Source: Gammaproteobacteria bacterium (GTDB taxonomy: Bacteria > Pseudomonadota > Gammaproteobacteria > BMS3Bbin11). From it: a stretch of DNA of 64,000 nt. The position numbers were made by a program, and so were the translations under genes. Where the stretch lies: assembly GCA_013150915.1 (NCBI GenBank), contig JAADJE010000031.1, positions 11,139 to 75,138 of the forward strand, written 5' to 3'. The notes beneath the pieces are model-generated. The model was not told the origin of the DNA. It made no database searches and was given only the letters and a program-made list of their open reading frames with translations. Positions 114 through 54,228 of the stretch are shown in pieces (the stretch's first letter is position 1; every line of letters begins with the position of its first letter).

Positions 114-590
114 ATGGAAAGTTTGCCATTAACCAGTAAGGGCGCAGAACGTTTGCGTGAAGAGCTTAAACATTTAAAGCAAGTTGCCCGCCCAAAAGTG
201 ATAGATGCTATTGCTGAAGCGCGCGCCCATGGTGATTTATCCGAAAATGCCGAATATCACGCTGCGCGTGAGGAACAGGGTTTCATAGAGGGCCGAATCA
301 AGGAGCTTGATAGTTCTCTAGGTCAGGCCCAGATTATAGATCCTACGACTCTGGATGCAGGTGGGCGTGTTGTTTTCAGTGCAACAGTGCAGTTGCTTAA
401 TATCGCTACAGGAGATGAAGTGACTTATCAGATTGTCGGCAATCTGGAATCAGATATTGAAAAATTGAAAATCTCTGTCAGTTCCCCTATTGCTCGTGCA
501 CTAATCGGCAAGGAAGAAGGCGATGAAGTTGCCGTGCAGACCCCAGGTGGCATAACTACGTATGAGATTTTATGTGTCAAATATATCTAA
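114..590 (+). CDS. greA: transcription elongation factor GreA
   Basis: 158-aa ORF with the typical GreA N-terminal coiled-coil and C-terminal FKBP-like region (…[21 protein letters not shown]…); conserved neighbourhood with yhbY/rlmE/ftsH. Confidence 0.9.
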
Positions 591-8512: not shown

Positions 8513-9012
8513 ATAACAGCGTTGATGAGAAAGGCATCATTGAACAGGGTGTTGCTGAAAGCGGCTGGGCCACAACCACGGCAGACAGCCTGATTAATTG
8601 GGCACGCACTGGATCGATGTGGCCAGTAACCTTTGGTCTTGCCTGTTGTGCTGTCGAGATGATGCAGGCAGGTGCTGCGCGCTATGACCTTGACCGATTC
8701 GGTATTATGTTCCGACCCAGTCCCAGGCAGTCTGATGTTATGATTGTCGCGGGTACTCTTACCAACAAGATGGCTGCCCCATTACGCAAGGTCTACGATC
8801 AGATGGCAGAGCCACGCTGGGTTATCTCCATGGGGTCCTGTGCCAATGGCGGAGGCTACTACCATTATTCCTATTCTGTTGTACGCGGTTGCGATCGAAT
8901 CGTGCCTGTTGATGTCTATGTGCCAGGTTGTCCGCCGACAGCTGAAGCATTGTTATACGGCATACTGCAGTTACAGAAGAAGATACGAACCAACACCATT
9001 GCTCGTACCTGA
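8503..9012 (+). CDS. nuoB: NADH-quinone oxidoreductase subunit B
   Basis: N2 cluster ligands CCAVEMM…GSCANGGG…CPP; start assigned to ATG 8503 with AAGGAG RBS (the six-frame ORF begins earlier at 8482). Confidence 0.9.
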
Positions 9013-9015
9013 CAG

Positions 9016-9621
9016 ATGAACAACATCGAAAGACTACAGGCGCTGCAAACGCGCATTACGGAAGTTGCGGGTAGTGCTATACAGTCTACTGAAATCGAAT
9101 TCGGTGAATTGACAATCGACCTGACTGACGATTCTCTGCATGATGTCTGTAGGAAATTACTCAGTGGTGAAAACTTCGCCTTTGATACCTTGATCGATGT
9201 TTGTGCGGTTGATTATCTTCATTATCGACAGGAGGCCGGCGAAAAATGGGATAAACCTAGATTTGCCGTGGTTTATCATCTACTTTCTACCTCTCGCAAC
9301 CAGCGTTTGCGGGTTCGCGTTTTCGTTGAAGAATCCTCGCCTGTGGTCGATTCAGTTATTGATATTTGGAGTTCTGCCAACTGGTTTGAACGTGAGGCCT
9401 TCGACCTTTTCGGTATCCTTTTCAAGGGTCACCCAGATCTGCGGCGAATTCTTACAGACTATGGGTTTGTCGGGCATCCATTTCGTAAAGATTTCCCACT
9501 GTCCGGTCATGTTGAAATGTGTTACGACGAAGAAAAAGGTCGGGTAATCTATCAGCCTGTTTCCATTGAACCTCGAGTTCTTGTCCCCAGGGTAATTCGG
9601 GAGGAGGGTTACGGTGCCTGA
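9016..9621 (+). CDS. nuoC: NADH-quinone oxidoreductase subunit C
   Basis: 201 aa 30-kDa subunit (…[12 protein letters not shown]…); not fused to nuoD. Confidence 0.9.
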
Positions 9622-10867
9622 AATACGCAATTACACAATGAACTTTGGTCCGCAGCATCCAGCGGCACATGGCGTGTTGAGACTGGTGCTTGAACTGGAT
9701 GGTGAAGTGATACAACGTGCCGATCCACATATTGGCCTACTACATCGTGCTACTGAAAAACTTGCTGAGAGTAAACCCTATAATCAAAGTATTGGCTATA
9801 TGGACAGGCTCGATTATGTCTCCATGATGTCGAATGAGCATGCCTATGTGCTGGCAATAGAAAAAATGCTCGGCGTAGAAGTCCCTTTACGCGCGCAGTA
9901 TATCCGGGTCATGTTTGATGAAATTACGCGCATTTTGAATCATCTACTATGGTTGGGTACACATGGTCTGGATATTGGCGCAATGACCATGTTTCTCTAT
10001 TGTTTCAGAGAACGTGAAGACCTGATGGATATTTACGAGGCGGTATCCGGTGCACGTTTACACGCGACCTATTATCGTCCTGGCGGTGTCTACCGGGATT
10101 TGCCGGATCGTATGTCGCAGTACGAGCCATCTAAATGGCATGACCAGAAAGCCGTCGACCGCATGAATGAGAACCGCCAGGGTTCCCTGCTTGATTTCAT
10201 CTGGGATTTCACCGAACGTTTCCCTGCTCACGTCGATGAGTACGAAACATTATTAACGGATAACCGTATCTGGAAACAGCGCACCGTTGATATTGGTATT
10301 GTTTCTCCTGAACGGGCAAGAAATCTCGGCTTTACCGGGCCTATGCTACGTGCTTCAGGTATTGAGTGGGATCTACGTAAAAAACAGCCTTATGAAGTGT
10401 ATGACCGCCTGGATTTTGATATTCCTGTGGGCACTCATGGCGACAACTATGACCGTTACTTGGTGCGTATAGAAGAGTTTCGTCAATCTAATCGTATAAT
10501 TCGTCAGTGTGTTGAGTGGCTACGCAATAATCACGGTGCGGTGATGGTGGAAGACCATAAGATTGTTCCACCTAAGCGTGAATCCATGAAGCACGATATG
10601 GAAGCCCTGATCCATCACTTTAAATTATTTACTGAGGGTTTTTGTGTGCCACAGGGCCAGGCCTATGCTGCCGTTGAACACCCTAAGGGTGAATTCGGTA
10701 TCTATCTTGTATCAGATGGCGCCAACAAGCCTTATCGACTCAAGATTCGTGCCCCGGGTTTTGCGCACCTCTCTGCAATGGATGAAATGTCTAACGGACA
10801 CATGCTGGCTGATGTGGTGGCTATTATTGGTACGCTGGATATTGTTTTCGGAGAAATTGATCGATGA
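9614..10867 (+). CDS. nuoD: NADH-quinone oxidoreductase subunit D
   Basis: 417 aa 49-kDa subunit; …[10 protein letters not shown]…, …[15 protein letters not shown]… motifs. Confidence 0.92.
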
Positions 10868-11355
10868 CTGCCCAGACTTTGTCTCCCGTCGCAATAAGCC
10901 AGATCGAAAAGGAACTTGAGAAGTATCCTGCTGATCGCAGACAGTCTGCAGTAATGGCCGCCTTACGTATTGTTCAGGAAGAGTTCCGATGGATTAGCAA
11001 CGATGTTATGCAGGAGGTTGCTGACTTGCTTGGTATTCCGGCTATCCATGTCTATGAAGTGGCTACGTTTTATTCCATGTATGAGCACAAGGATGTCGGT
11101 CTATACAAGATATGTGTCTGTACCAATATTTCCTGTCAGTTACGGGGGGCGAAAGAGATACTTGACTATCTACGGAAAAAAACAGGTATCGGGCCAGGTG
11201 AAACGACTGCGGATGGGCGCATTAGCATCAAGGAAGTGGAATGTCTGGGGGCCTGCGGCGGTGCGCCAATGATGCAGGTCAATAAGGAATATCATGAAAA
11301 TCTGACACCCGACAGTATCGACAATATACTTGATGGGCTGGATAGGCATGATTGA
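10864..11355 (+). CDS. nuoE: NADH-quinone oxidoreductase subunit E
   Basis: 163 aa 24-kDa subunit; thioredoxin-like [2Fe-2S] motifs CxxxxC…CLGACxxAP. Confidence 0.9.
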
Positions 11356-45101: not shown

Positions 45102-45887
45102 TTACTGACCGGTATAGCGAAAGGAGCGGAATGACTGTCCCAGGCTAATGTCGGTTCGCAGTGCCAGCAGATTTTTAATCAGGCTTGCTGACTCGCGATG
45201 TTCTGTTAATGACTTGCCGGTACGGCCGCCGATCTCATCTGCTGCAGCGATTATTTCCTCCAGATCTGAATAGGAATCAAGCAGGCGTGCTGCTGTCTTC
45301 GAACCGATACCGGGTACACCCGGCAGAGAATGCGATTTATCACCGACCATTGCCAGATAATCGTTCAACTGGCTAGTTTTAACCGAAAAACGCTGCTGGA
45401 TAGTCTCTGCTGTGATTGCTTCCTGTTTGAAGTGATTATATTGCCTGATACCTGGTCGTAATAATTGTGCCTGCCCCATGTCAGTCGATAATACAGTAAC
45501 TTCTGCACCCTGTGCGGCGGCCTTTATTGCGGCGCTGGAGATGATGTCATCGGCTTCCATCCCAGCAATATTCAATGTGAAAACACCGTTATCCTGAATC
45601 TCCCGTTTAAGCCGGGAAAAAATTTCAACCAGTTCCTCTGGCATAACAGGGCGATCTTTTTTGTAATCAGGGAAGACTTCATGCCGCCATGTCGAGCCGT
45701 CACATTCGAAGGCACATAAGGTATGTGTCGGTGTATGTTGTTTTAGGGCACGGGAAAGAGATTGTAGTGATGATGTGATGGTCTGTTCGATGATCTGGCT
45801 TTGTTTGTCTGGGGGAATGGCCGCATGAATGCGCCGGATAAGGTTCGGGGCATCAATCAGTAAAAAACGGACACCCGTGAGTTGCAT
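45102..45887 (-). CDS. xni: flap endonuclease Xni (ExoIX, 5'-3' exonuclease family)
   Basis: 262 aa from MQLTGVRFLLIDAPNLIRRIHA…; collinear with E. coli Xni including GMEADD metal site and H3TH/GVPGIGSKTA motif. Confidence 0.85.
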   Translation of the reverse strand: MQLTGVRFLLIDAPNLIRRIHAAIPPDKQSQIIEQTITSSLQSLSRALKQHTPTHTLCAFECDGSTWRHEVFPDYKKDRPVMPEELVEIFSRLKREIQDNGVFTLNIAGMEADDIISSAAIKAAAQGAEVTVLSTDMGQAQLLRPGIRQYNHFKQEAITAETIQQRFSVKTSQLNDYLAMVGDKSHSLPGVPGIGSKTAARLLDSYSDLEEIIAAADEIGGRTGKSLTEHRESASLIKNLLALRTDISLGQSFRSFRYTGQ

Positions 45888-45888
45888 C

Positions 45889-47367
45889 TCAGAAGCTGGC
45901 CAACTGCTGTTCAGTCGGTTCAGCACAACAGTACCAGGATTCCGAGTGCGTGGGGATGCTGTTCCCAGAATGATCTTCGGTGACATCCAGAGCATTTCTG
46001 CCAGTAGCTTTTAATGCGATACGACGTATCCCATTAAAAATCTGTAGCCTGCTAAGACCATCATTTTCAGCTTTTTCAGTCCAGTGTCGTATGTTTTCCT
46101 GCAACAGATCCAACTGGGGGTCTTTGTGTACCCAGGTATAACCCAGTGATGCAGGGTTGAAGTCGGTAACGCAGGTTTCTTCTTTTGGTAACTCGAGTAG
46201 ACGGGAGCCGTTGGGTATTAACAGGCGCAAGGAGAGTTGTACAGGATTGACACTCATGATTAATTTCAGTTCTGCGATCCTGTTCAGTAGATTGATATAG
46301 TTATCGATAGTTGTCCAGGGTGTAAAAGGAATGAAGGTCGGTGCCAGTGCGATGTTGTGTTTATTCATCATAGTGACGACCATCTCAAACTCTGCGGCAG
46401 TATGTCCTTTGTCAAGACGCTCAAGGATTCTGTTCTCAACCGATTCCACCGCGGTGGTCACCAGAATGCAGCCGCTGTCTCTCAGGAAGGGGAGAAATTC
46501 TGGATACTTGATAATGTGCTCAATTTTAATGACTGCATCGTAGCTAAGTGCAGGAAATTCCTCATGCATGGCCTCGATAATGCGTCGGGCATGTCGTGGC
46601 CCGTTAAGGAAGTCTGGGTCACCGAATGATATATGCTGTGCACCCTTTGCTACCTGTTGGCGTATATCTTCGAGGACAATATCGGCCGGTACTACATAAA
46701 AATGGCCTCTGTACACAGGGACCACCGGGCAGTGCCGGCAAAGGTGTTTGCAGCCGCGGGTCGTATCGGTAAAGCCCATGATACGTCTGGATCCGTCCGG
46801 TAGCACCAGTTGGGCATACTTTTCCAAAGCAGGTAGTGATTGGCGGTCAGGGACTAAAAATTTAATCCGACTCAGATTGATGACTGTTTCTGTGCGTGCG
46901 GGATGATCATCTTCATCGGTAATGGAGGCCGTGTAGGCTAGCATATCGTCTTCGGATTCACCGCCAAATACTGCATCGACACCCCGGTCTCTCAGGAACT
47001 GTTCATTGACCGGTGCATACCAGCCAAAGACCGCTATTCTTGCTTGTGGTGCCATTTTCTTTATGCGCGGCATGGCCTCGATAGCGATACGTGTGGCGGT
47101 GAGCATGCTCAGGTATAAAAAGACCGTCGTTGCAGGAGCCAGCACCTCAGTTGTTAGCTTTTGTTGCGATAGATCCAGACATTTCACCTCGTAACCCGCC
47201 TGGCTGAACAGCGCGGCAGGTTCTGCCAGAGCAAAAGGTTGTCGGCCGAGGTCGTATGGACTGATCAGTACGATTCTTTGTTTATCAGACAGGTTCTGTG
47301 CTGAATCCTGTTTATCCGTTGTCTCTATCAAACAGGTCGTGCTGCAAGTATTTTTCATGGTTGTCAT
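45889..47367 (-). CDS. B12-binding-domain radical SAM protein with C-terminal CCAEP tail (CUAEP/CCAEP-tail rSAM family)
   Basis: 492 aa; N-terminal cobalamin-binding-like domain, radical SAM CxxxCxxC (TRGCKHLCRHCPV), C-terminus …SESWYCCAEPTEQQLASF. Confidence 0.8.
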   Translation of the reverse strand: MTTMKNTCSTTCLIETTDKQDSAQNLSDKQRIVLISPYDLGRQPFALAEPAALFSQAGYEVKCLDLSQQKLTTEVLAPATTVFLYLSMLTATRIAIEAMPRIKKMAPQARIAVFGWYAPVNEQFLRDRGVDAVFGGESEDDMLAYTASITDEDDHPARTETVINLSRIKFLVPDRQSLPALEKYAQLVLPDGSRRIMGFTDTTRGCKHLCRHCPVVPVYRGHFYVVPADIVLEDIRQQVAKGAQHISFGDPDFLNGPRHARRIIEAMHEEFPALSYDAVIKIEHIIKYPEFLPFLRDSGCILVTTAVESVENRILERLDKGHTAAEFEMVVTMMNKHNIALAPTFIPFTPWTTIDNYINLLNRIAELKLIMSVNPVQLSLRLLIPNGSRLLELPKEETCVTDFNPASLGYTWVHKDPQLDLLQENIRHWTEKAENDGLSRLQIFNGIRRIALKATGRNALDVTEDHSGNSIPTHSESWYCCAEPTEQQLASF

Positions 47368-47384: not shown

Positions 47385-48158
47385 TTAACTACGTATCCCA
47401 ATGCCTTTTTTAAGTAAATAAAGTAAGGCGGCTGTTAGTACGGTAATAAAGCCGAAAATGATAATAAATGCAATGCCAATATTGAGGTCGGATTGACCCA
47501 GCACACCATAACGAAAGGCATTTACCATATACAGGATTGGATTGCTCAGGGAAACCTTCTGCCAGAAAACAGGTAACAGCTTGATGGAATAAAAGACACC
47601 GCCGAGATAGGTAAGCGGAGTGAGTACAAAGGTGGGAACGATTGTAATATCGTCAAAATTCTGTGCGAAAACGGCATTGATCATACCGGCAAGTGAAAAC
47701 AGAATGGCGGTCATCACAATCACAGTAACAGTGATTAGATAATTATCAATAGACAGGCCCGTGAAGAGTAGCGCGATGATCGTTACGATAGCCCCCACTA
47801 TCAGGCCACGTGCCACACCGCCGGTAACAAAACCGGCAAGGATAATAAAATTGGGGACAGGAGCGATCAGTATTTCTTCAATTGATCGCTGGAATTTCAT
47901 GCTGAAGAAGGACGATACAACATTGGCATAGGAACTGGTGATAACCGACATCATTATCAGACCGGGAACGATAAATTCCATATAGCTGAAACCATCCATG
48001 GTACCAATGCGCTTGCCAATAAGATTTCCGAAAATAATGAAGTACAGCGTCATGGTAATTGCGGGTGGCAGGATGGTTTGTGGCCAGATACGCATAAATC
48101 GCGTGATTTCGCGGTTGACGATGGTTTTATAGGCGGTGAAGTGGACGGTGTTGCTCAT
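47385..48158 (-). CDS. yadH: ABC-2 type transporter permease YadH
   Basis: 257 aa; collinear with E. coli YadH over full length (…EITRFMRIWPQTILPPAITMTLYFIIFGNLIG…); no cognate ATPase gene upstream. Confidence 0.9.
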   Translation of the reverse strand: MSNTVHFTAYKTIVNREITRFMRIWPQTILPPAITMTLYFIIFGNLIGKRIGTMDGFSYMEFIVPGLIMMSVITSSYANVVSSFFSMKFQRSIEEILIAPVPNFIILAGFVTGGVARGLIVGAIVTIIALLFTGLSIDNYLITVTVIVMTAILFSLAGMINAVFAQNFDDITIVPTFVLTPLTYLGGVFYSIKLLPVFWQKVSLSNPILYMVNAFRYGVLGQSDLNIGIAFIIIFGFITVLTAALLYLLKKGIGIRS

Positions 48159-49863: not shown

Positions 49864-50166
49864 GTGGGCATGGTAAATGATCCGGTCTGTGGGATGACAA
49901 TAGAAGTGAGTAATGCGGCGGCGCAGGAAAGGTACCAGGGCACAACCTGGTATTTTTGCTCTGACAGCTGTCACAGTAAATTTCTGGTGGATCCTGCCAG
50001 GTATGCGCAACATGAGACGATGACTGATCCGGTGTGCTACATGGAGGTATCTCTGGATTCGGGTTATCATGCGGAATACGAGGGGAAGACTTATTACTTT
50101 TGCTGTGAGTCTTGTCTCGGTAAGTTCATGAAGGATCCTACGCAATACGGGCGGGCAGATGCATAA
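49864..50166 (+). CDS. tandem YHS-domain (TRASH-like) metal-binding protein
   Basis: Two repeats of DPVCxM…(Y/W)YFCS(D/E)SC(H/L)xKF…DP…Y in 100 aa. Confidence 0.7.
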   Translation: MGMVNDPVCGMTIEVSNAAAQERYQGTTWYFCSDSCHSKFLVDPARYAQHETMTDPVCYMEVSLDSGYHAEYEGKTYYFCCESCLGKFMKDPTQYGRADA

Positions 50167-50318: not shown

Positions 50319-50587
50319 GACTTTGTTACCCGGCATGTGCGGCGTCTGCCGACGGCAGCAGGACTTCCCGGTCTAAAATAATACTCATCATACGGTAAAC
50401 CGGATGTTGGACACACACTCGGATAATGACAAGCCTTGCCGCATGGGTACGTGATACAAATCTGTGAATCAGTTACGATGAAACCTCCTGGCTTGACTGC
50501 CTGGAATTATTGGTAATGATCTGCCCGAATACCAGGGTGGTTAGTTCTAAGACTGTCATTTAGGATACGGAAAAGGGAGAATTGGTG

Positions 50588-51610
50588 ATGCAGCTTGGTA
50601 TGGTCGGTTTGGGACGGATGGGGGCGGCGATGGTTCGCCGCCTAATGCGTGCGGGTCATGAGTGTGTCGTATTCGACCGTAATCCAGAGGCCGTCAGAGA
50701 ACTGGAGGTGGAAGGGGCAAGCGGAGCGGCTGATCTGTCCGATCTCGTGGCCAGAATGGATAAACCCAGTGCCATCTGGATCATGGTGCCTGCAGCCGTG
50801 GTGAACAGTGTCATCAAGGCACTGGGTAAAGAAGTGGCGGCAGGCGATATCCTCATTGATGGCGGAAATTCTTACTATAAAGATGATATTACCCGTGCGG
50901 CACAGCTCAAATCTAGCGGTATTCACTATCTAGATGTCGGCACTAGTGGTGGTGTACTCGGCCTGGAGCGTGGCTACTGCCTGATGATAGGGGGGGAGAC
51001 TGAACCCGTGCAACATCTTACACCGGTATTTTCAGCACTGGCGCCTGGTCTGGGAAAGGTACCGCGTACCCTGGATCATCAGGGTGATCCGACACCGGCC
51101 GAGCAGGGCTACCTGCACTGTGGCACATGTGGTGCGGGACATTTTGTCAAGATGGTTCATAACGGTATCGAATATGCGTTGATGGCTGCTTATGGAGAGG
51201 GTTTCAATATTCTGCAACACGCCAACGTCGGGAAGCACGACACAGATATCGATGCCGAAACTACACCGTTACGTGATCCGCATGCCTTTCGGTATGACAT
51301 TGATATTGGTGCTGTCGCTGAAGTATGGCGGCGTGGCAGCGTTATTTCCTCCTGGTTACTGGACCTTAGTGCGGCTGCATTGCATGATGATCCAAATCTG
51401 GACAATTATCAGGGGCAGGTTTCTGATTCCGGTGAGGGACGCTGGACCAGTATAGCGGCCATTGAATCCGGGGCACCGGCACCGGTACTCAGTACGGCGC
51501 TGTATGAACGCTTTACTTCGCGTGGTGAAAGTGATTTCTCCAACAAGCTGTTGTCTGCCATGCGCTACGGATTTGGTGGTCACCTGGAAAAGAAGAAAGA
51601 ACACTCCTGA
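50588..51610 (+). CDS. gnd: 6-phosphogluconate dehydrogenase (decarboxylating), short Gnd/YqeC-like form
   Basis: N-terminal Rossmann MVGLGRMG; 6PGDH C-terminal helical domain; AAGGGAG RBS ~10 nt before ATG 50588; adjacent to zwf. Confidence 0.8.
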   Translation: MQLGMVGLGRMGAAMVRRLMRAGHECVVFDRNPEAVRELEVEGASGAADLSDLVARMDKPSAIWIMVPAAVVNSVIKALGKEVAAGDILIDGGNSYYKDDITRAAQLKSSGIHYLDVGTSGGVLGLERGYCLMIGGETEPVQHLTPVFSALAPGLGKVPRTLDHQGDPTPAEQGYLHCGTCGAGHFVKMVHNGIEYALMAAYGEGFNILQHANVGKHDTDIDAETTPLRDPHAFRYDIDIGAVAEVWRRGSVISSWLLDLSAAALHDDPNLDNYQGQVSDSGEGRWTSIAAIESGAPAPVLSTALYERFTSRGESDFSNKLLSAMRYGFGGHLEKKKEHS

Positions 51611-51622
51611 GAAAAATGCACT

Positions 51623-53185
51623 GTGCCACATACCAAGATAAAGACTGAAACGCTTCCAGCACCCTCCTGCATTATGGTCATTTTTGGTGCTGCCGGAGAT
51701 CTGGCCAAACGCAAGCTGTTTCCCGCACTTTACTATTTGTCTGCGCTGAACCAGCTGCCGGAACATTTTGCAATATTGGGTGTCAGCCGAGAAGACTTCA
51801 GTACTGAAAGTTACCGTGAGCTGATGAATACTGAAAGTCGCGTACACCTCGACGCTGATTATTCAGAGGATGTCTGGAAACGCCTGATCAAATGCTCTTA
51901 CTACCTGCAGGGTGACTTTCGTGATCCGGCAGCGTACCAGGCGCTGGCAGAGAAACTGTGTAAGCTGGACGATCAACACAAAATACCGGGTAATTACCTC
52001 TTTTATATGGCAACACCACCAGCTTTCTTCGGTGATATCGCCGAGCAAATTGCTGCAGCGGGCCTGACAACCGAGCAAGATGGTCATTGGCGTCGTCTGG
52101 TTATCGAAAAACCATTTGGACGCGATCTACAATCTGCCCGCGATCTTAATCGCAGGTTATTAAACGTATTTGATGAACACCAGTTGTATCGAATTGACCA
52201 TTATCTCGGCAAGGAGACCGTACAGAATTTCCTTGCTTTTCGTTTTGCCAACGGCGTCATCGAACCCATCTGGAATCGCCGTTATATCGATCATGTACAA
52301 ATCACTGTGGCCGAGCCTCTGGGTGTTGAAAACCGCGCAAGTTATTACGAAGGCACTGGTGCACTACGGGATATGGTTCCCAATCATTTACTGGCGGTAC
52401 TTGCGATTATCGCCATGGAACCACCGATATCATTCAATGCCGATGAAATCCGCGATGAACAGGCTAAGGTATTACGTGCTATTCAGCCTCTGACACCAGA
52501 AGAAGTCCTTATCCATACAGTGCGAGGCCAGTACGGATCGGGTGTTATGGGTGATGGAACTCACGTAGCGGCTTATCGTCAGGAAGCGGGTGTTGCAAAG
52601 GATTCACAGACTGAAACATTTGTCGCTCTGAGCCTCATGATAGACAGTTGGCGTTGGGCCGGTGTACCTTTTTATCTGCGTACGGGAAAGCGTTTACCTG
52701 GGCGTTTCACTGAGATTATGATCCAGTACAAGCACGCACCGAATGCTGCTTTTAAACGCTCGATTCTAAAGGAAAAACGTGTAGAACCTAATGTTATGGT
52801 ACTGCGCATACAACCCAGCGAAGGAATCAGCCTGGGGATCAATGCCAAGGTACCCGGCCAGGCATTACAGTTGAGCCCAGTGGAAATGAACTTCAGCTAT
52901 GACGATTATTTTGGTAATGAACCCAGCACGGGGTACGAAACATTGATTTATGACTGCATGCAGGGTGACCCCACATTGTTTAAACGTGCAGACATTATCG
53001 AAATAGCCTGGCAGTTAATGGAGCCAATACTCGATATTTGGAGTGCGCTACCACCGCGTGACTTTCCGAACTACGCCGCCGGGGAATGGGGGCCCTCTGA
53101 GGCTGATGATCTGCTCCAGCGTGATGGCCGCTCATGGCGCATATGTACACCGGGCGGATGTGTCCGTAGAACGAACAACGAATAG
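51623..53185 (+). CDS. zwf: glucose-6-phosphate 1-dehydrogenase
   Basis: 520 aa; NADP-binding GAAGDLAKRK, catalytic RIDHYLGKE motif. Confidence 0.92.
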   Translation: MPHTKIKTETLPAPSCIMVIFGAAGDLAKRKLFPALYYLSALNQLPEHFAILGVSREDFSTESYRELMNTESRVHLDADYSEDVWKRLIKCSYYLQGDFRDPAAYQALAEKLCKLDDQHKIPGNYLFYMATPPAFFGDIAEQIAAAGLTTEQDGHWRRLVIEKPFGRDLQSARDLNRRLLNVFDEHQLYRIDHYLGKETVQNFLAFRFANGVIEPIWNRRYIDHVQITVAEPLGVENRASYYEGTGALRDMVPNHLLAVLAIIAMEPPISFNADEIRDEQAKVLRAIQPLTPEEVLIHTVRGQYGSGVMGDGTHVAAYRQEAGVAKDSQTETFVALSLMIDSWRWAGVPFYLRTGKRLPGRFTEIMIQYKHAPNAAFKRSILKEKRVEPNVMVLRIQPSEGISLGINAKVPGQALQLSPVEMNFSYDDYFGNEPSTGYETLIYDCMQGDPTLFKRADIIEIAWQLMEPILDIWSALPPRDFPNYAAGEWGPSEADDLLQRDGRSWRICTPGGCVRRTNNE

Positions 53186-53235
53186 ACCGATTTTTGGGAC
53201 TCATTGACCCGTAATGGGTCAGAAAACAGACCTCA

Positions 53236-54228
53236 TCATTTTTTACTTAAACGGTAGGCCAGTTGCCGTGCGCCCAGTAGCCCCGCCTGCTGATTCAGAA
53301 TAAGTTTTACAGGAATCTTTTTAAGTAATTTTTGCATGGGACTCTTATTGCTGAAAGCCGTCAAAAATGCGGGTGACTGCATGAACGATACATTTTTTGC
53401 CGCGATCCCACCGCCAATATACAGGCCATCATACGGCAGGGTAGTCAGAGCCAGATTTCCGGCTTGTGAACCATATATTGTTGTAAAAAGAGTCATCGCC
53501 TGGGCCGCCAGAGACTGATTATCTTTTTGAGCGGCACGACTAATAGCTACTGGATTGCTGGTTGTCAATTTGCTGTTTAACTCAGGGTCAACCAGCTCCG
53601 GATGCTGTTGTTCGAGGAAATGATAAATATTAACGATCCCCTGACCTGAAAGAACCTTTTCACAGGAGATGCGCGGGTGTTCTTTGCGCAGGTAGCTGGC
53701 AAGCTTAAATTCAATATCAAGGACAGGGGCGTAATCCGCATGCCCGCCTTCCATCCCGTACACCTCATACCGGTTTTGCTGGTAAACCAGCAGCGCTTCC
53801 CCCAGGCCCGTACCGGCACCAATTATGGCCCTGCGGGTACCGGCCTGTGCCTGTCCTTCCTGCAGAACCAGGATGTCATCCTTGTTGAGTACTTCGATGC
53901 CATAACCAATAGCCTTGAAGTCATTAATAATTTTTACGACAGGAATATCGAATTGTGCTGCCAGCTCGAGGTTATTGATTTGCCAGGGGAGGTTGGTTAC
54001 CTGTACAGATTGTTTCTCATCTTCAGTTGCAACGGGACCCGCGACAGCAAGACAGGCGATTTGGGGTTTGGGCTGCCCCTGGAGAAAAACATCCAGTGCC
54101 TGATCGAAGGATTTATATTCCCCGCTTATCAGGCGTTGCTGGTAGATAATATTTAATTGGTGATTGCCGATGTCACAAAGCTGTAACAGGGTCTTTGTGC
54201 CGCCAATATCGGCCGAGAGAATAACCAA
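53236..54228 (-). CDS. glk: glucokinase
   Basis: 330 aa ROK-less Glk family: ADIGGTKTLLQL phosphate-1 motif, overall collinearity with E. coli Glk. Confidence 0.85.
   Translation of the reverse strand: MVILSADIGGTKTLLQLCDIGNHQLNIIYQQRLISGEYKSFDQALDVFLQGQPKPQIACLAVAGPVATEDEKQSVQVTNLPWQINNLELAAQFDIPVVKIINDFKAIGYGIEVLNKDDILVLQEGQAQAGTRRAIIGAGTGLGEALLVYQQNRYEVYGMEGGHADYAPVLDIEFKLASYLRKEHPRISCEKVLSGQGIVNIYHFLEQQHPELVDPELNSKLTTSNPVAISRAAQKDNQSLAAQAMTLFTTIYGSQAGNLALTTLPYDGLYIGGGIAAKNVSFMQSPAFLTAFSNKSPMQKLLKKIPVKLILNQQAGLLGARQLAYRLSKK

Follow-up and report, generated by a model that had tools for sequence, protein, structure and literature searches.

The 64,000-nt window analysed here (positions 11,139 to 75,138 of contig JAADJE010000031.1, from the gammaproteobacterial assembly GCA_013150915.1) carries a gene for a radical S-adenosylmethionine (SAM) enzyme whose C-terminus bears a CCAEP tail. 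We found that the encoded protein is an ordinary Cys-Cys member of a large, NCBI-named and uncharacterised family, the CUAEP/CCAEP-tail radical SAM proteins. The sole studied relative of this family is ArsL, the enzyme by which the antibiotic arsinothricin acquires its carbon-arsenic bond. The tail is conserved throughout the family, many members use selenocysteine (Sec) at its second cysteine position, the homology to ArsL is colinear, and the recurrent partner gene encodes an L-amino-acid ligase (LAL). From these features we infer, with a confidence somewhat short of even, that the window protein works like ArsL, transferring the 3-amino-3-carboxypropyl moiety (ACP) from SAM to a soft atom on the Cys480-Cys481 tail. 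SAM cleavage would then be of the ACP type and the tail would serve as the substrate carrier for a product whose likely nature is considered below.

Family membership and the cysteine/selenocysteine tail

The protein matched NF040546, the NCBIfam model of CUAEP/CCAEP-tail radical SAM (seleno)proteins, with 574.2 bits against a cutoff of 500. The match is full-length, residues 32-490 aligning to model positions 1-467 of 468, and a chance match is excluded by the E-value of 1.9e-172. This confirms the family assignment of an earlier note made from the sequence alone, which had pointed to a CxxxCxxC site and a CCAEP C-terminus in a 492-aa protein; both are present in the translation of the open reading frame (ORF). 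The cluster motif, C206-KHL-C210-RH-C213, is invariant in the alignment of homologs and in a joint alignment with the ArsL family, and Pfam PF04055 (Radical_SAM) scored 45.5 bits (cutoff 29.5). The C-terminus reads SWYCCAEPTEQQLASF (= HSESWYCCAEPTEQQLASF), and residues 478-492, WYCCAEPTEQQLASF, contain the C-[C/U]-A-E-P motif of NF040546. Both Cys480 and Cys481 are encoded by TGT, the latter being the position occupied by Sec (TGA) in many family members. By the note's own account its reading would fail if the protein fell into a well-characterised radical SAM family whose homologs do not conserve the tail. This was not observed: NF040546 is its best model, and of the 120 best homologs, which reach down to 51% identity, 119 retain the tail SE.WYCCAEPT.QQL..F, the exception being a truncated fragment.

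A 100% identical protein is present in a gammaproteobacterial metagenome-assembled genome (MAG) in GenBank, and several close homologs are already named CUAEP/CCAEP-tail proteins. When one genome per species was scanned with a sequence pattern, relatives turned up in at least 586 genomes, spanning Proteobacteria, Acidobacteriota, Actinomycetota, Chloroflexota, Verrucomicrobiota, Methylomirabilota and other phyla. An exhaustive HMMER search over 1.84 billion cluster representatives returned 405 clusters with E <= 1e-30, a number that rises to 1352 with E <= 1e-10. The family has been called uncharacterised (Haft 2022 preprint).

The second tail cysteine is frequently exchanged for Sec. Its codon in 86 tail sites of the fetched loci (designated by L numbers below) was TGC in 58, TGT in 13 and TGA in 15, and the conserved AEPT..QL frame resumes after the TGA in all 15 cases, as had been anticipated for some members of the family. 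Among about 86 distant representatives with readable C-termini, 41 carry CCAEP, seven carry near variants of the CCSEP, CCAAP or CCAMP type, and 38 end at W[YF]C. We read these abrupt ends as Sec forms because a gene caller would stop at a Sec codon; Sec forms would then make up roughly 40% of the sequence clusters. A hairpin about 15 nt past the UGA is stronger in Sec-form than in Cys-form loci (mean -19.1 versus -12.5 kcal/mol), as expected of a bacterial Sec insertion sequence (SECIS) element. The use of Sec at this position argues for a chemically active tail, whether nucleophilic or metal-binding. No tRNA-Sec was found in the window, where Rfam gives two tRNAs only (selA, selB and selD were not searched for), but this matters little because the window gene uses TGT-TGT.

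Two further observations concern the 3′ ends of these genes. On the megaplasmid of Thermomicrobium roseum DSM 5159 (NC_011961; L088, locus 8935-10440), WP_012643191 is annotated to stop at ...ESWFC, and the sequence continues in frame past the TGA as ...ESWFC*AEPLEDP, an unrecognised Sec codon in a cultured aerobic thermophile. In the window, the last 60 nt of the radical SAM gene (45889-45948, minus strand) fold into a fairly stable hairpin over the PTEQQLA codons (-19.1 kcal/mol, z = -1.5) that stops at the stop codon and the start of the adjacent xni gene. It could be a SECIS-like relic, a translational-coupling feature or chance.

At the other end of the protein lies a second Cys pair, C8-S-T-T-C12. 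Pairs of this kind (NC.T.C, NCC or DCKTC) occur in 44 of 114 homologs, are confined to those of at least 59% identity and are nearly universal in the clade of the window protein. In an AlphaFold2 (AF2) model built from a 16-sequence alignment (mean pLDDT 85.3, pTM 0.84), residues 1-27 are disordered and the tail has a pLDDT of 60-68. The pair is clade-specific, and the extension that carries it is modelled with low confidence and is probably disordered.

Relationship to ArsL and the proposed chemistry

The second-best NCBIfam model was NF040542 (ArsL, RCCLKC-tail), with 251.2 bits over residues 33-425, while the third-best reached 40 bits. ArsL is by far the best functional guide, because no other family scores above 40 bits. 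The earlier note had seen neither this close relationship nor the conserved ligase partner. By tblastn of plasmids we detected 36 RCCLKC-tail/ArsL genes, whose matches cover 80% of the query with 27-31% identity; the annotated ArsL of Pseudomonas amygdali, from a cluster annotated arsQ-arsL-arsM-aquaporin-arsN1, matched at 27% over the same 80%. BLASTP against the RCCLKC-tail protein of B. cereus gave 31% identity over 404 colinear residues (E = 4e-66). ArsL and the window protein are built alike: a Rossmann-like N-domain is followed by the radical SAM core, and a vicinal Cys pair sits on a short, flexible tail at the C-terminus. The joint alignment with the ArsL family has 48 invariant columns, including RGC.H.C..C, F.D.D and P..W. 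Invariant residues are, among others, G41/Q43/P44, R204-G205-C206, H208, C210, C213, F248/D250/D252, E308, K320, P350-W351, R381, G387-S388, W412 and D420, and MAFFT puts the vicinal CC of the CCAEP and RCCLKC tails in the same columns. In a rough midpoint-rooted neighbour-joining tree, which is only indicative, the ArsL clade falls as a single long branch within the diversity of CC/CU tails, among which Sec and Cys forms are intermixed.

ArsL, which makes the C-As bond of hydroxyarsinothricin, cleaves SAM reductively at the C-gamma-S bond to give an ACP radical and 5′-methylthioadenosine (MTA) (10.1101/2024.02.01.577332). It has been described as the only radical SAM enzyme having the canonical CxxxCxxC motif that makes an ACP radical and not a 5′-deoxyadenosyl (5′-dA) radical. 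Removal of the RCCLKC tail abolishes product formation while SAM cleavage is kept (10.1101/2024.02.01.577332). The cysteines of the tail bind arsenic, which has been proposed to attack an organometallic Fe-ACP intermediate while so bound (10.64898/2026.04.29.721666). The tail variant 'MCCA', in which only the CC pair is left, was the most active on a methylarsenate-derived substrate (PMC13598754) and is highly active on methylarsenite. A vicinal Cys pair on a flexible tail therefore suffices to present a soft atom to the ArsL active site.

ORFs were called in 84 loci and clustered, and their co-occurrence with the radical SAM gene was counted. The recurrent partner, encoded directly downstream and on the strand of the radical SAM gene, is an L-amino-acid ligase of about 430 aa with the Pfam domains ATP-grasp_4, LAL_C2 and ATPgrasp_N. 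Its best solved relative is BL00235, matched over the full length with E = 1.5e-33, and BacD comes next. A tblastn search of the 80 genome loci found the ligase in 52. Of the 68 loci that extend at least 1.5 kb downstream, 46 have the ligase gene immediately after the radical SAM gene and one has it before; in two it lies about 8 kb away. The pairing was found in Betaproteobacteria, Gammaproteobacteria, Acidobacteriota, Verrucomicrobiota, Dormibacterota and Methylomirabilota, and extends over at least five phyla. No exporter or tailoring enzyme was consistently near the radical SAM gene in the neighbourhoods of these loci. We rejected the possibility that the ATP-grasp partner modifies the C-terminus of the radical SAM protein in the manner of LysX/RimK, since the sequence past AEPT is not conserved across phyla and since the partner has LAL_C2 and matches a free-amino-acid ligase over its full length.

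LAL-type ATP-grasp proteins occur in some gene clusters of both families. The ArsL-family module on plasmids of B. cereus, Klebsiella, Alicyclobacillus and Pantoea (L089, L091, L092 and L093) comprises an LAL-type ATP-grasp protein, a major facilitator superfamily transporter, ArsM and a GTP-binding protein. This gene content suggests a dipeptide form as the product of some arsinothricin clusters; with about 23% identity, the ATP-grasps of the module are no more than distant relatives of the CCAEP-family ligase.

In the ArsL-like mechanism that we propose, the [4Fe-4S] cluster would generate a cluster-bound ACP group from SAM. The flexible C-terminal tail would hold a soft, thiophilic atom on Cys480-Cys481 (Cys-Sec in many relatives) and bring it to the active site, where ACP would move onto the tail-held atom to yield a gamma-substituted 2-aminobutanoate amino acid. 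An amino-acid product fits because the conserved partner is an L-amino-acid ligase, which in about two thirds of lineages is adjacent and would turn the amino acid into a dipeptide. In the clade of the window protein no ligase is nearby, and the extra C8/C12 pair may, by analogy, be a second thiol hand-off site. As for the atom itself, a sulfur or selenium species (persulfide or selenide) may fit the neighbourhoods slightly better than arsenic. Arsenite is argued against because arsenic genes are wholly absent from the neighbourhoods: no ars gene was found among the scanned window neighbours or the recurrent neighbour clusters of the 80 genome loci, whereas ars genes are present at all five ArsL-family genes inspected. 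The weak lean to sulfur or selenium comes from the suf, YggX and DUF971 neighbours described below, the occasional tpm and the Cys/Sec exchange.

Several points weigh against this reading. The score of 251 bits lies below the NF040542 cutoff of 450, and radical SAM families often switch chemistry in the range of 27-31% identity. The window tail, WYCCAEPT..QL..F, offers two thiols (or a thiol and a selenol), in contrast to the three of RCCLKC; the arsenite-binding motif of three cysteines is lacking in the window protein, and only the vicinal CC is common to both. In the window protein, unlike ArsL, the tail comes after a helical insert of about 60 residues (417-453), and His212 before the third cluster Cys corresponds to Tyr in ArsL. 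Arsenic islands (ArsR, ArsM, aquaporin, ArsN1 and ACR3) surround ArsL genes but not CCAEP genes, whose neighbours (ligase, YggX, DUF971, DUF169, suf and housekeeping genes) indicate no substrate. The window lacks the ligase that would act on the product. Finally, literature searches on CUAEP/CCAEP, RCCLKC, ArsL-like, ACP-radical and radical SAM selenoproteins returned no characterisation of the family.

We consider it possible, though less likely, that the protein performs canonical 5′-dA radical chemistry. Hydrogen would then be abstracted from a small-molecule or protein substrate, and the Cys-Cys/Cys-Sec tail would be redox-active or donate a hydrogen atom, a role like that of the Cys-Sec on the mobile C-terminus of thioredoxin reductase in mammals. 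The CxxxCxxC motif and the partial TIM-barrel core are indeed canonical, and the best structural neighbours (AprD4, TMq 0.68; OxsB; MiaB) use 5′-dA or have the canonical fold. ArsL, however, has a canonical motif and fold and yet does ACP chemistry, so that the fold does not discriminate between the two models. Sec is typically redox-active in selenoproteins and the divergence from ArsL is large, but no other family approaches ArsL in score and the ligase partner is explained more simply by an enzyme that makes an amino acid.

Among the other recurrent neighbours are genes related to Fe-S clusters (YggX, DUF971, aconitase and suf). The Fe(2+)-trafficking/oxidative-damage protection protein YggX is encoded near the radical SAM gene in 33 loci, DUF971 just upstream of it in 22 loci of Betaproteobacteria, DUF169 in 10 loci, mostly between the radical SAM gene and the ligase, and aconitase, named from its sequence without a profile check, in 11. 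In Arenicellales, a complete sufC-sufD-sufS-sufU-sufT operon ends in the radical SAM gene on one strand (L045, 6483-11416; L051 and L075; MAGs), a gene order that links the family to an Fe-S assembly/cysteine desulfurase operon in that lineage. The tail might therefore take a persulfide from a cysteine desulfurase relay and the sulfur be inserted or transferred as by MiaB, RimO or LipA, with no free amino acid formed. MiaB and RimO are among the structural matches, but the MiaB-family models match only weakly (20-31 bits versus cutoffs of at least 250), no TRAM domain was matched in Pfam, and the N-terminal domain lacks an auxiliary-cluster Cys triad, C63 being its only conserved Cys in the homolog alignment. 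On these grounds we rejected an assignment to the MiaB/RimO methylthiotransferases. As the Fe-S neighbours may just reflect the upkeep of an oxygen-labile cluster in aerobes, a role in Fe-S cluster or sulfur trafficking is improbable, although it overlaps the ArsL-like mechanism if the tail-borne atom is sulfur.

The N-terminal domain had been described in the earlier note as cobalamin-binding-type. This holds at the level of the fold, whereas the match to Pfam PF02310 (B12-binding) is sub-threshold (18.4 bits, E = 0.002; gathering threshold 32.1). The best structural match of the AF2 model is AprD4, an enzyme with a B12-like Rossmann domain that is not known to use cobalamin, followed by OxsB, TsrM, MgmA, CysS and TokK (TMq 0.5-0.64). 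Because the Pfam match is sub-threshold and the structural matches are both cobalamin-dependent (OxsB, TsrM) and cobalamin-independent (AprD4), 'B12-binding' is a fold label that says nothing firm about the cofactor. A sequence search of solved structures gave remote matches only (AprD4, E = 4.6e-07) and found no ArsL structure.

The same fold could accommodate a class B cobalamin-dependent radical SAM methyltransferase acting on an unactivated carbon or heteroatom, and weak NCBIfam matches of 24-40 bits point in this direction (PhpK-type P-methyltransferase, methyl-coenzyme M reductase glutamine C-methyltransferase, and C-methyltransferase of ribosomally synthesised, post-translationally modified peptides, RiPPs). 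Every class-B family score is nevertheless far under its cutoff, for which reason this assignment was rejected, and the components named for ArsL reconstitution (ArsL, SAM, As(III) and reductant) include no cobalamin. With a presumably cobalamin-independent enzyme as the top structural match, such an activity is very improbable.

Gene neighbourhood in the window

The gene order yadH-rSAM-xni-orf121-mutT/thiE-tpm-pqqD, where rSAM denotes the radical SAM gene, lies entirely on the minus strand and is followed by mltD and yajQ (Table 1). The earlier note had reported this co-directional run without giving a strand. Profile searches agree with the gene identities that it had listed, and the ORF coordinates with its spacings; the Xni-like protein falls just under its cutoff and has both 5′-3′ exonuclease Pfam domains.

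Table 1. Coordinates and profile matches of the radical SAM gene, its parts and its neighbours
Feature	Position	Strand	Remarks
CCAEP-tail radical SAM protein, Cys-Cys form	45889..47367	minus	492 aa; start ATG, stop TGA; ORF and translation
Disordered extension carrying the C8/C12 pair	residues 1-27	
N-terminal Cys pair C8-S-T-T-C12, codons	47332..47346	minus	low-confidence extension
Rossmann-like 'B12-binding-like' domain	residues ~31-165	
Radical SAM core	residues ~186-415		with C206/C210/C213
Helical insert	residues 417-453		not present in ArsL
Tail	residues 475-492	
C-terminal tail codons S475-F492, SESWYCCAEPTEQQLASF	45892..45945	minus	includes vicinal Cys480-Cys481 (TGT TGT)
ABC-2 permease (YadH-like)	47385..48158	minus	NF011648 410 bits, cutoff 225; stop 17 nt upstream of the radical SAM ATG
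Xni-like flap endonuclease / 5′-3′ exonuclease	45102..45887	minus	NF007017 248 bits, cutoff 261; ATG 1 nt after the radical SAM TGA
orf121, 121 aa	44607-44972	minus	no Pfam or NCBIfam match; overlaps the mutT-thiE start by 13 nt
Nudix-ThiE fusion (mutT-thiE)		minus	NF006530 365 bits, cutoff 245
Tpm		minus	NF009732 261 bits, cutoff 213; TIGR03840 TMPT_Se_Te 254 bits, cutoff 223
PqqD-like		minus	Pfam 46.6 bits, cutoff 23.4; NCBIfam model PqqD, sub-threshold at 39.5 bits, cutoff 46

The yadH-like permease gene and the radical SAM gene are probably co-transcribed, and xni is probably co-transcribed or translationally coupled with the latter. The promoter/terminator scan gave counts not above the shuffled expectation and no clear minus-strand terminator within the run, and was uninformative on the operon limits. 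The orf121 product is conserved at 61% identity in L007, and orf121 is thus probably a real gene. Over the 64-kb window tblastn found neither an ABC ATPase nor an MMPL gene, unlike the region upstream of yadH in L007; synteny is thus broken just upstream of yadH. The YadH-like permease (47385-48158; upstream sequence examined to about 48500) is therefore an orphan permease at a synteny breakpoint.

Each window neighbour was searched by tblastn against the 80 genome loci. L007 (76% identity) shows the gene order of the window and L008 and L009 show part of it, the three relatives being 76-90% identical, while homologs at about 50% identity have unrelated gene contexts. The xni gene is beside the radical SAM gene in L007-L009, which makes its adjacency clade-level synteny only. 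Within the same three loci mutT-thiE was found twice, plus one weak match, and pqqD once, in L007; yadH is present in all three and in L013, about 2 kb upstream of the radical SAM gene. tpm was found in four of the 80 loci (L007, L008, L021 and L024). Neither the ligase nor YggX was found in the window by tblastn. Since tpm, PqqD, xni and yadH recur almost only in relatives of at least 76% identity, the idea that their co-directionality is informative about function was not supported. We rejected a function of the window neighbours, including mutT-thiE, as a family-level signal.

The short gaps, the common strand and the lack of a convincing intrinsic minus-strand terminator between the genes might still be taken to indicate a local pathway, in which the run from yadH to pqqD would join the enzyme to Tpm (selenium/tellurium methylation) and/or the PqqD-like protein, for example in the metabolism of a selenium compound or in RiPP maturation. 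Tpm scores above the cutoff of the selenium/tellurium methyltransferase model, Sec is used by family members, and tpm lies about 1 kb from the radical SAM gene also in L021 and L024; in these two loci, however, it is convergent. A RiPP- or pyrroloquinoline quinone-type radical SAM enzyme would be expected beside a PqqD partner, but the PqqD-like gene is five genes off and near the radical SAM gene only in L007, and neither a precursor peptide nor another RiPP gene was seen. The run mixes unrelated housekeeping genes (DNA repair, Nudix/thiamine), and about 65% of the loci pair the radical SAM gene with an amino-acid ligase instead. Given in addition that xni and mutT-thiE are limited to L007-L009 and tpm to four loci, a local pathway appears the least probable of the alternatives.

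The tpm homologs of L021 (12439-13083) and L024 (2293-2946) share 42% identity with the window Tpm and lie convergently downstream of the radical SAM gene. They belong to a second gammaproteobacterial lineage, whose radical SAM proteins are 49-50% identical to ours, and are the sole recurrence of tpm outside the close relatives, which makes them a weak lead.

Two observations concern the region on the other side of yadH. The genes gnd (+), zwf (+) and glk (-) are located at 50582-54228, and zwf and glk (with gnd in some cases) lie 2-7 kb from the radical SAM gene in the window and in nine other loci (L049, L064, L065, L067, L068, L074, L083, L084 and L085) of Acidobacteriota, Verrucomicrobiota and Dormibacterota. 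Orientation and spacing vary, and the proximity may be coincidental. An ORF of 100 aa at 49864-50166 (+) contains two CGM/CYM...YFC..C repeats like tandem YHS/TRASH metal-binding domains, with a sub-threshold match to the NCBIfam 'YHS domain-containing (seleno)protein' (33 bits, cutoff 70).

Implications and comparison with known systems

Beyond the window, the CUAEP/CCAEP-tail proteins could tentatively be viewed as noncanonical radical SAM enzymes of the ArsL type that have radiated widely without being recognised as such, comprising several hundred 50%-identity clusters including the ArsL group. They would transfer ACP to a chalcogen or metalloid on the tail to form a new C-S, C-Se or C-metalloid amino acid, from which a dedicated ligase would make a dipeptide that is an antimetabolite or a low-molecular-weight thiol/selenol. 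Arsinothricin synthase would be one specialised offshoot, and the clade of the window protein a ligase-less one with an N-terminal Cys-pair hand-off arm. If ArsL-like chemistry is true of this much larger sister family, cleaving SAM in the noncanonical way would be a widespread trait of bacteria in soil and water and no mere curiosity of arsenic metabolism, and would point to an unknown amino acid or dipeptide metabolite. The frequent Cys/Sec exchange at one tail position makes the family one of the few in which radical SAM enzymes are selenoproteins. A clear experimental handle is provided by the tail, by the products of SAM cleavage and by the partner ligase, and the function of the family is directly testable; the window gene is an ordinary Cys form, and its own neighbours give little functional information. 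The closeness to ArsL in figures, the ligase partner together with the Fe-S-related neighbours, and the clade-specific N-terminal Cys pair are described in no searchable paper.

Compared with the NF040546 family as a whole, the window protein has the same CxxxCxxC core and the same W-Y-C-C/U-A-E-P-T tail, but it is of the Cys-Cys and not the Sec form and belongs to a gammaproteobacterial clade with the extra N-terminal Cys pair and without an adjacent L-amino-acid ligase. It resembles AprD4-type and class-B radical SAM enzymes in its two-domain fold, at 14-18% sequence identity; those enzymes have no comparable Cys/Sec tail.

A parallel to the tail is offered by the mercuric reductase MerA, an enzyme of unrelated fold and chemistry that has no sequence homology to the window protein. 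In MerA, a vicinal Cys pair on a flexible C-terminus picks up a soft metal ion and carries it to the buried active site, and the N-terminal Cys pair of NmerA, a CxxC domain, hands the ion to this C-terminal pair. By analogy only, the C-terminal CC and the N-terminal C-x3-C of the window protein may form a comparable pair of thiol sites.

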